A DNA stretch of 58,283 nt from Nitrospinota bacterium (GTDB lineage: Bacteria > UBA8248). The position numbers and the translations under genes were made by a program. Position 1 is the first letter of the stretch. Each line of letters begins with the position of its first letter. Below, piece after piece: positions 22,386 through 30,915 of this stretch. The notes beneath the pieces were generated by a model. That model ran no database searches. It was not told the DNA's origin and saw only the letters and a program-made list of their open reading frames with translations. The DNA lies in NCBI GenBank assembly GCA_030754595.1, contig JASLZZ010000050.1, forward strand, positions 1 to 58,283, given 5' to 3'.

Positions 22386-22549
22386 CCCTCTCCTTCGGCC
22401 TGGCACCGTTTGGAGCCCCTCCCCCACCCTCTCCTCGCGGCCTGGAGGGCAGCCATTCCAGGATTCGCCCGAGAGCCTTTTCTGGTAGAACTGGCTCGTC
22501 AAAGAGTTGCTTGAAGAACGCCGGTTGAACCGGAAGCGAGGCGAGAAAA

Positions 22550-23392
22550 GTGAAGATCGGGGATGTCGAGCAGGCGATCAAGGGCCGTTATGGCAAGTTC
22601 GCCGAGAAAGGTGGTCACAAAGAGGCCTGCTGACCCAGTAAGCGAGGGTCCAGTCTGGGCTTTGCGATCGGCCAGGCGCTTTACGGGCGGGACGAGCTCG
22701 CCTCGCTGCCGGAGCTCGCGCTCAATCTCTCCCGCGGTTGCGGCAACCCGACTGGTTTCGCGGGCCTTGCTCCAGGCGACGTGGTTGTGGATTTCGGTTG
22801 CGGAGGGGGGATAGATGTCATCTTGGCCGCCCAGAAGACCGGCTCGAAAGGCAGGGTCGTCGGAATCGATTTCACATATCAGATGATCGAGCGCGCCAGA
22901 CAGGCCGTGGCCGAGGCGGGCTTGGAGGACAGGGACATCGACCTGCGCGTGGCGTCGATGGAGGAGTCGCGGCTTCTGGATAAGTCGGCCGATGTCGTCA
23001 TGTCCAACTGTGTCGTCAACCTGTGTCCCGACAAGGAGGCCGTTTACAAGGAGGCCTTTCGCATCCTGAGAGCGGGTGGACGCCTTGCCGTATCGGACAT
23101 CATACTCACGGAGAACATTGGTGCCGAGGTGCGAGAGCGCTTTCAGTCAACCTGGACGGGATGCTTTGGAGGGGCTGTCCTCGAGGCGGATTATTGGCGA
23201 ACCGTGAGGAAGGCGGGCTTTGCCGAGGTCCGGGTTGTGGCGCGCCATATCCTCGCCCCCGAGGAGTTGGGGGGAATGGCCCGTTGTCCCGGCGAGGAGT
23301 ACAACCCTGCCCCCGCGAAAGAGGACCTCGCCCGCGCGCAAGGGAAAGCGGCCAGCATCAAGTTCACGGCGGTGAAGCCTTCTTCCGGGTGA
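22550..23392 (+). CDS. Arsenite methyltransferase (ArsM)-like SAM methyltransferase, probable selenoprotein (TGA at 22631-22633 = U28)
   Basis: GTG start at 22550 reads IKGRYGKFAEKGGHKEAC-U-PSK... and continues in frame through SRGCGNP, DFGCGGGID, SNCVVNL and WTGCFGGA (ArsM Cys motifs). Confidence 0.85.
22642..22665 (+). promoter_or_regulatory. Candidate SECIS hairpin for the ArsM-like gene
   Basis: GCGAGGGTCCA-GTC-TGGGCTTTGC, a GU-rich stem with a GUC loop 20 nt after the UGA. Confidence 0.5.
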
Positions 23393-23785
23393 ATTTCACA
23401 GAGGTATGTAAAAAACGAAATTCAAAAAACAAGAATCCTGCCCTTCGATAATTTCATTCATTCTCGCCGGCCCGGTTCTTCATGCGGTAGTGGCGCCGGG
23501 TGTGGAGCGAGACGGCTCCGGGATGGGGCCGCTCAGCGGCGGGTGGAGGCCGTGCTCCCTCACCCCAGCCCTCTCCCGGCGTGAGAGGTTTTTTTTCCCG
23601 GGGTCCGGCGAGCGGCGGAAAGTGGAAAGGGCTGTAGCCCTACACCACGGCAAACGCCTCCAAAAGGCGGGAAAGTTCGCGTGAAAGCGGATCTTTGGCA
23701 GACCCGGCGGAAGGTGGATCGAAATTTTCGCCCTGGGCCCTCGCGGTGGGCGCCGGCGGAATATTCCTACTGAGGAGGAGGCGGC

Positions 23786-25271: not shown

Positions 25272-26111
25272 CTACAGGAGCAACTCAGTTTTCGAGGCGC
25301 ACCTGAATCCGAAGTAACGGTGGCCGCCGTCGAGGCGGCCAGGATAGACTGGCACCCTCGAGGTCGAGCTCAACTCCTCGCCCACGCTCGAGGTGTTCCC
25401 TCCGCGGGAGACGCGGGCGTCGTGAAAATCGAGGTTCTCGCGCCCGTCCTTGGGAAGATAGGGATAGGGCCTGTAGAGCGAGCGCGTCCACTCCCACACC
25501 TGACCCACCATGTCGAGCGCTCCGTAGGGGCTCGCTCCCCTGGGATACTGGCCGACCGGTGCGGCGTCGTTCCTGAAGCTGCCGAAGAAGGCGAGGTCTT
25601 TCGCGGGTTTTTGGTTCCCCCAGGGATAGAGGCGTCCGTCGGTTCCGCGCGCCGCCTTCTCCCACTCGGCCTCGCTCGGAAGGCGCTTTCCGCGCCACTT
25701 GCAGTAGGCCACCGCACCCTGCCATGCCATTTCGCCAGCCGGAAAATTATCGAATTCCTTCGGAACGATCCACTTTCCGTCCAACAGGAGGATGCGGTTG
25801 TCCTCGTCTCCGACGTCGAGATAGACCTCGCCCTTGGGGCCAGCGGGGCCCTTGGCGCGGATAAACTCGGCGTACCGGGCCCAGGTGACGAGATTCTTGT
25901 CGATATAGAAGGCGGGCAAATGAACGGTGTGGCCCGGCTTCTCATCGGGCGGCCCTCCGCTTCGCCCCATGGTGAACGGTCCGGCCGGGATGAGGACCAT
26001 ACCGGCGAATTTCCCCTTACCCTCGACGATGGCCGCGCCGGCCAACGGGGCGGTGGCTTGAAACGCCCACGCCGCGAGAAGGGAGGCGGCGATGATTCGT
26101 GCCATTCTCAC
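25272..26111 (-). CDS. FGE-sulfatase (SUMF1/EgtB/PvdO) domain secreted protein
   Basis: Signal peptide, MVLIPAGPFTMG, RLPSEAEWEKAARG, MVGQVWEW and GFRCA motifs. Confidence 0.9.
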   Translation of the reverse strand: MRMARIIAASLLAAWAFQATAPLAGAAIVEGKGKFAGMVLIPAGPFTMGRSGGPPDEKPGHTVHLPAFYIDKNLVTWARYAEFIRAKGPAGPKGEVYLDVGDEDNRILLLDGKWIVPKEFDNFPAGEMAWQGAVAYCKWRGKRLPSEAEWEKAARGTDGRLYPWGNQKPAKDLAFFGSFRNDAAPVGQYPRGASPYGALDMVGQVWEWTRSLYRPYPYLPKDGRENLDFHDARVSRGGNTSSVGEELSSTSRVPVYPGRLDGGHRYFGFRCASKTELLL

Positions 26112-28560: not shown

Positions 28561-30915
28561 TTAAGGCTGTGATAAGTCCGGCGCTGTCACCGCTGTCGCA
28601 TCCTCGGCCGCCGGGGCGCTGGCCGGCTCCCGGAACACCGTAATCTCGGGCGGCTCATCCACATAGCGCTCGATATCGACCAAAACGCTTTGGGCGGCGG
28701 GGCCCTGCCCGAGTTTCGATGTCCCCTTGTCCAGGGTGAGTGCGTTGGGGTTGCCGTGCCTGTCAAGGCCGCCCTGGGTGAGCGGGTCGTACCAGGCGCC
28801 CGTCGCCAACTGAATAACGCCTGGGCGAATCCGATCGGTGATGATAGCTCCGGCCAGCGCCGCCCCCCGGTCGTTGAAAATCCGGACGATATCGCCCTCC
28901 AAAATTCCCCGCCGGGCGGCGTCCGCCGGATGGATTCTAACCGGTTCCCTGCCACGTATCTTGCTCTCGCGGCTCACCCCGGCGGGGTCCATTTGGCTGT
29001 GAAGACGGGTGACGGGCTGATTCGAGATCATGTGCAGCGGATGACGCGCCGCCCCCTCGCCGCCAAGCCACTCGGCCGGGTCGAGCCAGGCGGGGTGGCC
29101 CGGACAGTCGTCGTATCCGAAACCATCGATGGTCTGGGAGAAAATTTCGATCTTCCCGGAGGGTGTGCTCAGCGCCCGGCCGGCCGGGTCGGCCCGAAAG
29201 TCGGCGAGCATGACATAGGGCTCATCTGGGGGAGGGATCTCCACATGACCTTTCTCCCAAAAGTCATTGAAATCAGGGTAGTTAACCAGCCGCTCCGCCG
29301 CCTGCTCGCGGGCTGTGTCGTAGAGGTGGCGGATCCACTCCATCTCGCCGCGCCCCCCGGTAAAGGTTTCCCGTGTGCCGAGGCGCTCGGCGAGGTCCGC
29401 GAATATGTCGAAATCGTTTCGCGCCTCGCCGACGGGCTCGATGGATTTCTTCATCGCCAGGATAAAGCGGTCCATTGCGCTCGCGCCGAGGTCGTTGCGC
29501 TCGACCGTGGTGGTCGCCGGGAGAACGATGTCGGCGTGCCGGGCGGTGGAGGTCCACCAGGGCTCGTGGACGATGACGGTCTCGGGCTTTTGCCAGGCGC
29601 GCACGAGACGGTTGAGGTCCTGGTGGTGGTGGAACGGGTTCCCCCCGCACCAGTAGACGAGGCGGATGTCGGGATAAATCCGCTTCTCCCCGTCGAAGTG
29701 GTACGCCGCTCCGGGAGAGAGGAGCATATCGGCGATCCGCGCCACCGGGATAAAGCTGTCCAGTGGATTATCCCCGGGGGACAGGGCGGGCGTGGGGATC
29801 CGCTTCCGGGGGTTCCCGTTGCCGGCCATGGAACCGTATCCAAAACCGAAGCCCCCGCCTGGAAGGCCGATCTGGCCGAGCATGGCGGCGAGTGTGGCCG
29901 TCATCCAGAAGGGTTGTTCGCCGTGGTCACCCCGCTGAAGCGACCAGGCCGTCAGGATCATCGTGCGCCCCGCGGCCATCCTCCGGGCCAGCTCCCGTAT
30001 CTTAACGACCTCAATTTCGGTGACCCCGGCCGCCCAGGCGGCGTCTTTTGGACGTCCGTCCGAGCGGCCCATCAGGTAGTCCTCGAATTTCGCATACCCC
30101 TCGCAATAACGGCCGAGAAAGCCCTGGTCGTGGAGGCCTTCGGTCACCAGCGTATGGGCGAGCCCGAGCATGAGAGCGGTGTCGGTGTTCGGCCGGGGGC
30201 GGAGCCACTCGGCGGCGAGGAAATCGGAAGCGTCGTCCCGAAGGGGGGCGATGTTGACGAACTCGATCCCTTTTTCCTTCGCCCGGCGCAGCCACACCTC
30301 GGCCGTGTGCTCGCCGGGGCCGCCTCCGGCGACCTGCATGTTCTTGAGGGGAATCCCGCCGAACATGACGATGAGGCTTGAACTCTCGACGAGACCGTCC
30401 CAGGTCGAGCCGCCGTTGATGTGGCCCGATTTTCCCAAGACATGGGGCAGGATGGCCGAGCCTGCGGCGTGGCTGTAAGTGTGTTTTTGGTTGGTGAAGC
30501 CGCCTATGGTGTTCATGAACCGATGGAGCTGGGTCTTGGCGTGATGGAATCGCCCGGCGCTCGCCCAGCCGTAGGAGCCGGCGAAGATAGCTTCGTTGCC
30601 GTGCGCCTCCTTGACGCGGCGGACCTCGGCGGCGACGAGATCGAGGGCCTTTTCCCACGATACGGGGACGAAAGGCTCCGCGCCCCGCCGCCCCTCGCCG
30701 GGACCCTTCTCCAGCCAACCCGCGCGGATCATCGGGCGGCTCACCCGGCTCTCGGCATAAACCGCCTCGGGGATCGAGTCCAGGATCGGCGAGGGGTGAG
30801 GGTCCTTCTCGAAGGGCTCGACGGCCTCGAGGCGGCCGCCGCGCACCTCGGCCCGGAATGCCCCCCAATGGGAGTTGTGGTGATGAAATTCCCGGGATTT
30901 GGATATTGGGGCCAA
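28561..30915 (-). CDS. Molybdopterin oxidoreductase, BisC/TorA/DMSO-reductase family (cytoplasmic)
   Basis: SHWGAF, GSYGWASAGRFHHA, TYS Mo-ligand Ser, QRGDHGEQ, GGNPFHHHQD, RLHSQ and GAWYDP motifs; no Tat signal. Confidence 0.93.
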   Translation of the reverse strand: MAPISKSREFHHHNSHWGAFRAEVRGGRLEAVEPFEKDPHPSPILDSIPEAVYAESRVSRPMIRAGWLEKGPGEGRRGAEPFVPVSWEKALDLVAAEVRRVKEAHGNEAIFAGSYGWASAGRFHHAKTQLHRFMNTIGGFTNQKHTYSHAAGSAILPHVLGKSGHINGGSTWDGLVESSSLIVMFGGIPLKNMQVAGGGPGEHTAEVWLRRAKEKGIEFVNIAPLRDDASDFLAAEWLRPRPNTDTALMLGLAHTLVTEGLHDQGFLGRYCEGYAKFEDYLMGRSDGRPKDAAWAAGVTEIEVVKIRELARRMAAGRTMILTAWSLQRGDHGEQPFWMTATLAAMLGQIGLPGGGFGFGYGSMAGNGNPRKRIPTPALSPGDNPLDSFIPVARIADMLLSPGAAYHFDGEKRIYPDIRLVYWCGGNPFHHHQDLNRLVRAWQKPETVIVHEPWWTSTARHADIVLPATTTVERNDLGASAMDRFILAMKKSIEPVGEARNDFDIFADLAERLGTRETFTGGRGEMEWIRHLYDTAREQAAERLVNYPDFNDFWEKGHVEIPPPDEPYVMLADFRADPAGRALSTPSGKIEIFSQTIDGFGYDDCPGHPAWLDPAEWLGGEGAARHPLHMISNQPVTRLHSQMDPAGVSRESKIRGREPVRIHPADAARRGILEGDIVRIFNDRGAALAGAIITDRIRPGVIQLATGAWYDPLTQGGLDRHGNPNALTLDKGTSKLGQGPAAQSVLVDIERYVDEPPEITVFREPASAPAAEDATAVTAPDLSQP

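Follow-up and report, generated by a model that had tools for sequence, protein, structure and literature searches.

A selenocysteine-decoding gene of the ArsM methyltransferase family in a Nitrospinota genome, very likely with selenocysteine at the first conserved cysteine

The locus and its full-length reading frame

The window analyzed here is a stretch of 58,283 nucleotides (nt) from a Nitrospinota bacterium (contig JASLZZ010000050.1, assembly GCA_030754595.1). The gene in question, at 22550 to 23392 on its forward strand, belongs to the ArsM family of arsenite methyltransferases and contains an in-frame UGA, directly after a cysteine codon, that is very likely decoded as selenocysteine (Sec, U). 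The frame opened by the GTG at 22550 comprises 280 codons before the stop TGA at 23390-23392; only one in-frame TGA interrupts it, at codon 28, and 252 further codons follow. Calling under translation table 11 returns a sole open reading frame (ORF) in this frame, 22781-23392, of 203 residues, the start of which falls inside the S-adenosylmethionine (SAM) binding motif and 3' of the GCGNP cysteine. An initial annotation, made from the sequence alone, had described this call as 77 codons short, which is exactly what the ORF list gives, and the landmarks it had named in the GTG-initiated frame (the TGA, GCGNP, SNCVVNL and WTGC) were all located by translation. The features of the gene are as follows.

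22537-22540, forward strand: putative Shine-Dalgarno-like GAGG, 9 nt 5' of the GTG, from direct reading of the sequence
22550-23392, forward strand: full selenoprotein coding sequence, 280 residues plus stop, with a GTG start, from translation, the orthologues' start codon and the alignment to the family model NF008823
22550-22630, forward strand: first 27 codons, which ordinary ORF calling leaves out, the last being Cys27 (TGC, 22628-22630); amino acids conserved and synonymous sites variable among 68 distinct sequences
22631-22633, forward strand: in-frame UGA, codon 28, read as Sec (U28), directly after Cys27; based on the codons at the loci compared and on the Sec machinery in the genome
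22642-22665, forward strand: hairpin resembling a selenocysteine insertion sequence (SECIS), stem 22642-22652 with 22656-22665, a bulged G and the apical loop GUC at 22653-22655, from folding and comparison
22739-22741, forward strand: Cys64 of GCGNP, second conserved ArsM cysteine (CmArsM C72), aligned to solved ArsM chains
22781-22807, forward strand: SAM-binding motif VVDFGCGGG, from the Pfam methyltransferase domains; also the start of the miscalled ORF
23009-23011, forward strand: Cys154 of SNCV (SNCVVNL), third conserved cysteine (CmArsM C174), aligned to solved chains
23162-23164, forward strand: Cys205 (TGC) of GCxGG (WTGC), fourth conserved cysteine (CmArsM C224); TGA-bearing paralogues have Sec here
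23390-23392, forward strand: terminal TGA, the true stop; conservation ends here, and the orthologue L024 stops a few codons later at TAA/TAG

Four orthologues, described below, have ATG at exactly the codon of the window's GTG. Pfam places the protein among class I methyltransferases (Methyltransf_31, E = 3.4e-26, together with Methyltransf_11 and Methyltransf_25) and recognizes no extra domain. With Cys written for Sec, the NCBIfam model for arsenite methyltransferase (NF008823) aligns with residues 5-278 (E = 1.4e-67), which shows homology over the N-terminal extension as well. When the subfamily profile is compared with solved chains, ArsM from Chlamydomonas (5evj, 4e-33) and from Cyanidioschyzon (4fr0/4kw7) come first. 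An AlphaFold2 model of the protein has a mean predicted local distance difference test (pLDDT) score of 89.9 and a predicted template modeling score (pTM) of 0.90, and its top 11 matches in Foldseek are all ArsM or human AS3MT, with query-normalized template modeling scores (TMq) of 0.64-0.70. The family is very large, as a search of representatives gave 21,841 matches at E <= 0.001.

All four conserved ArsM cysteine positions are present, the first of them as the Cys-Sec dyad C27-U28; the subfamily alignment (A1) shows no variation at C64, C154 or C205 and at least 90% conservation at C27. The protein is thus ArsM/AS3MT-like by sequence, fold and its four conserved cysteines. In comparison to the solved enzymes (CmArsM, 4fr0/4fs8; CrArsM, 5evj; human AS3MT, 8xt7), it shares the SAM-methyltransferase fold and the four cysteine positions with their motifs, whereas it has Sec for the first cysteine, preceded by an invariant Cys, and at 280 residues it has a shorter C-terminal domain than these chains of 320-390 residues; it also differs in lying below the NCBI cut-off and in having no ars neighborhood. 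A further motif, Cys246-Pro-Gly (residues 246-248, 23285-23293), has C246 at least 90% conserved and P247 and G248 invariant across the subfamily. This motif stands outside the canonical four cysteines, and a second Cys frequently comes just before it (CCPG); in L022, the closest orthologue, Gly occupies the position of Cys246.

Metatranscriptomic contigs matching the gene were also seen and were not used as evidence. Three runs from two studies each hold one contig of about 150 nt, at least 99% alike, over 23114-23285 only, and a contig from a fourth run lies over 23390-23500. All of these contigs, which need not be transcripts, leave the UGA region uncovered.

Conservation of the UGA and of the downstream hairpin

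One genome per species was scanned with the subfamily profile, and the best 80 of 169 confirmed loci were kept. At the column of U28 the codon is TGA in 69 of the 80 and a Cys codon in 10, while L106, where the match begins at residue 37, gives no reading; TGG occurs at this column in none of the 80. The codon before the TGA is TGT or TGC at every one of the 69 TGA loci, giving Cys at position -1 in 68/68 distinct TGA sequences. The TGA loci are spread over Nitrospinota, Methylomirabilota/Rokubacteria, many Desulfobacterota, Chloroflexota, Nitrospirota, Actinomycetota, SAR324 and others, the nearest to the window being a Nitrospinota locus at 96%. The genome search covered the window's own assembly and those of 40 relatives, 41 in all, and found orthologues in four of the relatives (96, 90, 82 and 68% identity), each with exactly one in-frame TGA; all four read KE-x-C-U-PSKR. 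TGA is also the terminator in the window gene and in orthologues.

In the 68 distinct TGA sequences, the amino acids encoded at positions -23 to -1 are conserved, whereas synonymous codons are mixed freely: Tyr is written TAT 35 times and TAC 33 times, Phe TTC 44 and TTT 24 times, Arg with six codons, and Ala and Gly with four each. Conservation of the amino acids with free synonymous variation is the signature of a translated sequence. At the U column itself, distant ArsM homologues without the stop have CC or CCC, and the solved algal enzymes have the Cys of a TSAC motif (CmArsM Cys44). The central inference of the initial annotation, that a CC pair had become CU, is supported by this alignment of U28 to Cys columns in the distant homologues, in the 10 Cys-coding loci and in algal ArsM; the TGA-containing orthologues that it had proposed to search for are abundant, and the upstream peptide, whose lack of conservation it had named as a ground for refutation, is conserved.

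A quick maximum-likelihood tree was built from 83 rows, with 80 clade members including the window and three distant homologues as outgroup; L106 was left out and the U column was entered as C. The C-U-PSK proteins and their Cys-containing relatives form one clade with 100% support in the Shimodaira-Hasegawa-like approximate likelihood ratio test (SH-aLRT), apart from other ArsM homologues. The 10 Cys forms fall into three small groups, for which two to three state changes suffice, and the mixing of phyla in the tree suggests horizontal spread of the gene.

The 3.55-Mb assembly that holds the window encodes the components of Sec decoding, all above curated cut-offs, and so contains the machinery on which the initial annotation had made its proposal depend:

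contig C102: tRNA-Sec, 73.6 bits
contig C113: SelB, 364.5 bits
contig C113: SelA, 551.8 bits
contig C16, 24543-25505: SelD, 345 bits, with an in-frame TGA of its own

The one in-frame TGA in selD indicates that selenophosphate synthetase is itself a selenoprotein in this genome. A tRNA-Sec of about 74 bits is likewise found in each of the four genomes with TGA orthologues.

The hairpin lies within the coding sequence, 13-34 nt past the UGA, and consists of a 10-bp stem with a bulge; its spacing from the A of the UGA is 19 nt. The GUC-loop hairpin noted in the initial annotation is present. Its minimum free energy (MFE) is -8.5 kcal/mol alone and -9.9 kcal/mol for columns 10-40. A model of bacterial SECIS elements, as set out in the accessible part of a recent review (PMC13188914), specifies a stem of 4-16 bp, a loop of 3-9 nt with G in its first two positions, a spacing of 16-37 nt and an MFE of -7.5 kcal/mol or lower. 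The window element lies within all four limits (stem, GUC loop, 19 nt spacing and -9.9 kcal/mol), and 67 of 70 aligned sequences reach the energy limit.

These 70 sequences form a gapless alignment of 48 nt from the TGA (A2), in which pairing was assessed over 67 distinct rows. Columns 17-22 pair with 26-31 to form a 6-bp core helix with the consensus AGCCCG-GUU-CGGGCU, and 92% of cells are paired; the lower stem (columns 12-13 with 34-35) is paired in 49% of cells only, and no conservation is claimed for it. Two pairs show compensatory changes: 21/27, with one U-A and one A-U, and 22/26, with three cases of A-U, one of them in the window. Covariation is modest, with 5 of 536 cells changed on both sides, a value matched by one of 500 shuffles. 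Four loci of one clade (L062, L090, L101 and L109) form another hairpin at the same place (columns 16-33) with the register shifted by one base, GAGGCCG...CGGCUUC, which codes for EAGSGFA rather than QPGSGYA; there the structure is kept although the sequence is not.

The strongest evidence of selection at the RNA level is the suppression of synonymous variation at codons +5 to +9. Synonymous entropy here is 0-0.59 bits, whereas most fully degenerate codons in the rest of this region show about 1.1-2.1 bits, and the usage is strongly skewed (Gln CAG 42/42, Pro CCC 55/59, Gly GGT 36/42, Ser TCG 57/63 and Gly GGC 64/68). The folding energy of nt 10-40 is -10.2 +/- 1.7 kcal/mol in the 69 Sec forms and -6.8 +/- 3.1 kcal/mol in the 10 Cys forms, at equal content of guanine and cytosine (GC); the Cys-form relatives are without the hairpin element and have an unrelated peptide at that place.

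Relation to known selenoproteins and proposed mechanism

ArsM is a listed prokaryotic selenoprotein family, with 41 proteins from 39 organisms (Peng et al. 2016, PMC5029168), and is counted among characterized selenoproteins in two reviews that cite Fomenko et al. 2007 (PMC9312934, PMC13188914), according to the portions of these articles that were available. In the same portion of the latter review, from 2026, the motif UxxG is given for arsenite methyltransferase (NF008823), ArsM/AhpD (NF041537), ArsM/DUF2284 (NF041536) and methyltransferase/UXPK-star (NF047649). The window protein shares with these selenoproteins the ArsM-family methyltransferase domain, Sec for a catalytic Cys and occurrence in bacteria with Sec machinery. 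UxxG fits the fourth cysteine (GCxGG), a placement suggested by paralogous sequences and by the motif in the review's table rather than by primary papers. Paralogues of this kind with a TGA occur in five relatives and, on contig C117, in the window's own genome; their sequence at the fourth cysteine is WTG-U-IAG, and they have lost cysteines 1-3. Two of them were scanned and score higher than the window protein, with 243 bits compared to 165 for NF041537 and 212-214 compared to 154 for NF047649. Against cut-offs of 510, 575 and 460 bits for NF041537, NF041536 and NF047649, the window protein scores 165.1, 155.1 and 153.9 bits and so reaches none of them; it has no fused AhpD or DUF2284 domain and no UXPK end, its C-terminus being ...KPSSG-stop.

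Unlike the UxxG selenoproteins, the window protein has Cys205 at the fourth position and Sec at the first cysteine, and its Sec site therefore differs from the listed one; it represents a different Sec site within a known selenoprotein family and not a new kind of system. In the literature covered, which does not extend to Fomenko 2007 or to Haft and Tolstoy 2025, no mention of Sec at the N-terminus of ArsM was found, and the available portions of PMC8938466, PMC7996765, PMC5552862, PMC13745706 and PMC13326102 likewise have none. Earlier counts of selenoproteins called "arsenite methyltransferase" may already include the N-terminal form without saying so.

The second ArsM-like Sec gene of the window's genome, at C117:149-783, has its Sec at the fourth cysteine (WTG-U-IAG) and is split over two frames, with high-scoring segment pairs at 149-457 and 478-783. 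It may be frameshifted or mis-assembled, and the gene is intact in the relatives G001, G003, G010, G025 and G029.

Adjacent Cys and Sec residues are known from other selenoproteins. Mammalian thioredoxin reductase ends in GCUG, in which Cys and Sec are vicinal. Further CU-motif selenoproteins are MbdU and SaoB, as listed in the accessible text of PMC13188914. In each case the dyad is on a flexible segment, where a selenenylsulfide or a chelate with a soft metal could form; the folds, however, are unrelated, and in the window protein the dyad belongs to the N-terminal part of a methyltransferase, so the analogy is mechanistic only.

Sec commonly replaces redox-active nucleophilic Cys. For the arsenic enzymes, the part of PMC6138428 that was available describes four cysteines shared by all arsenic methyltransferases (CmArsM C44, C72, C174 and C224), of which the C-terminal pair binds the trivalent arsenical. 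Cys44 reduces a transient enzyme-bound pentavalent methylated species, MAs(V), and then forms a disulfide with Cys72, which thioredoxin reduces; both residues are required for the first methylation and are dispensable for the second (PMC6138428, same portion).

In the window gene, the UGA at 22631-22633 is very likely decoded as Sec by SelB and tRNA-Sec under the direction of the hairpin inside the coding sequence. C154 and C205 would hold the trivalent metalloid while SAM gives the methyl group, and Sec28 would act as a stronger nucleophile and reductant of the pentavalent intermediate. It would end up bonded to the sulfur of either C64 or the neighboring C27, as a selenenylsulfide that thioredoxin could recycle; a bond to C27 would be reminiscent of the Cys-Sec pair in thioredoxin reductase. 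The initial annotation had suggested selenium-assisted binding or methylation; a redox step fits better than binding, as the accessible text of PMC6138428 gives this Cys the role of reductant. That the gene is Sec-decoding and of the ArsM family, with Sec at the first conserved cysteine, is held with high confidence; the whole account, including the redox role of U28, is somewhat less secure and still likely. From homology we infer both this redox role and arsenite as the substrate. That Sec and Cys naturally alternate at the first ArsM cysteine independently marks the residue, on the reasoning used in Sec/Cys-pair analysis, as a redox-active nucleophile, the role given to it in the disulfide-cascade model of arsenic methylation.

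Alternative readings and significance

Several observations weigh against the selenoprotein reading or against parts of it. On its own the window hairpin does not fold better than chance (z = 0.53, with 131 of 200 shuffles folding as well or better), and its reality therefore rests on the comparative evidence; this single-sequence test was set aside, since short hairpins rich in GC are hard to tell from shuffled sequence. An Rfam scan of 22400-23500 with an E-value threshold returned no matches, a null that is uninformative because bacterial SECIS elements of such a kind are matched by no family. The conservation of the hairpin is mostly sequence identity that overlaps conserved codons. The score with NF008823 is 228.1 bits, less than the curated cut-off of 263, and NCBI would therefore not name the protein an arsenite methyltransferase by that model. 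Confidence in the structural model is low in the loop of U28 (pLDDT 71 for residues 21-30, 53 for residues 31-40 and less than 50 for residues 31-34), so that proximity of U28 to C64 is not shown by the model; the predicted low-confidence segment, whose codons carry the hairpin, fits a mobile loop. No ars genes lie within about 7 kb in the window, in agreement with the initial annotation, which had seen none adjacent, and clustering of 678 flanking ORFs from 81 loci gave no conserved neighbor, the best cluster being a short-chain dehydrogenase/reductase (SDR) at 6 of 81 loci. Selenium incorporation at U28 itself we infer from nucleotide-level data.

If the TGA were a genuine stop, the gene would encode an N-terminally truncated methyltransferase from a downstream start or would be in decay. 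Public gene calls agree with a stop insofar as 51 of the 120 best database matches are fragments of 226-268 residues that start after the U column, and the stop reading also draws on the hairpin's lack of significance in the single sequence. Against this, the TGA is held at one column across phyla with purifying selection on the 23 preceding codons, Cys stands in its place in sister clades, the downstream starts chosen by gene callers differ between loci, and in the window the first such start, 22781, would delete the invariant GCGNP cysteine; a genuine stop is therefore very improbable. Equally improbable is that the UGA is read as Cys or Trp through near-cognate decoding, or that TGA has been reassigned, without Sec. 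The 69 full-length matches do include 12 proteins that read C-W-PSK (P0007, P0009, P0010, P0013-P0016, P0018, P0020, P0023, P0027 and P0037), while the rest carry cysteines, mostly a CC pair, and none of the 120 best matches has U at the column. These W readings, however, are best explained by gene callers translating TGA as Trp, because TGG is found at no locus. Reassignment is also opposed by the use of TGA as terminator in the gene and its orthologues and by the complete Sec machinery, and the conserved downstream hairpin would serve no purpose if the codon were simply read through. The selenoprotein is real, is found across many phyla and is usually mis-annotated.

A selenoprotein of the same kind could instead act on antimony, selenium, tellurium, mercury, or a thiol or selenol, rather than in arsenite detoxification, and this reading, while not the favored one, is a serious minority possibility. 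It draws on the NF008823 score below the cut-off, on the well-separated clade, on the lack of ars context both in the window and across the 81 loci, and on the extra, nearly invariant Cys246-Pro-Gly near the C-terminus. To these are added the Cys-form relatives P0032, P0060, P0070 and P0080 (N-terminus SCCSKPAPSACC), which are about 415 residues long and end in a MerT mercuric-transport domain (PF02411), a fusion suggesting that a thiophilic metal or metalloid may be handed to the methyltransferase. On the other side, the four ArsM cysteine positions are retained with the motifs around them, and the nearest solved folds are exclusively ArsM/AS3MT. The missing context also says little in this genome, as a Cys-only ArsM paralogue is likewise without ars neighbors, and arsM genes often stand alone. 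By homology, arsenite is taken as the default substrate of the Sec-containing enzyme, an assignment less certain than that of Sec; the sub-threshold family score, distinct clade, MerT fusions and Cys-Pro-Gly leave room for another thiophilic substrate.

In the window, the gene is flanked upstream by EF-G, a SPOR protein and a TPR protein, and downstream by an SDR (named by its GGxxGIG motif only), an FGE-sulfatase-family protein (25272-26111, reverse strand, E = 1e-46) and a molybdopterin oxidoreductase of 784 residues (28561-30915, reverse strand; Molybdopterin, Molydop_binding and Molybdopterin_N). In the other loci, no link of the FGE-sulfatase or the molybdopterin oxidoreductase to the methyltransferase was seen. 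The Cys-only paralogue is located at C35:4792-5655 (reverse strand) and is 37% identical, with a CC pair, ACGNP, SNCV and CACIAGA; its neighbors are an M20 peptidase, a xanthine-dehydrogenase-like protein and a glyoxalase-family protein.

The placement of the SECIS-like element in the codons of a low-confidence loop illustrates how an RNA signal may fix a peptide, PSKRQPGSG, that would otherwise be free. The annotation error is systematic, with most genes of the clade called either as the short fragments or with Trp at the UGA. As the genes are mis-called and no NCBIfam cut-off is reached, surveys of arsM and of selenoproteomes probably miss or mislabel the clade, and this concerns marine nitrite oxidizers, sulfate reducers, Chloroflexota and Rokubacteria. 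More tentatively, and with the odds rather against it, the C-U-PSK clade may be a functionally distinct, cross-phylum group of metalloid methyltransferases in which a thioredoxin-reductase-like Cys-Sec center at the first ArsM cysteine drives a reduction cascade through a selenenylsulfide instead of a disulfide. If this were true, such a cascade could allow methylation at very low levels of substrate or reductant, or methylation of a substrate other than arsenite, and the contribution of the clade to marine and anoxic metalloid cycling would have been overlooked because public annotation truncates its genes.

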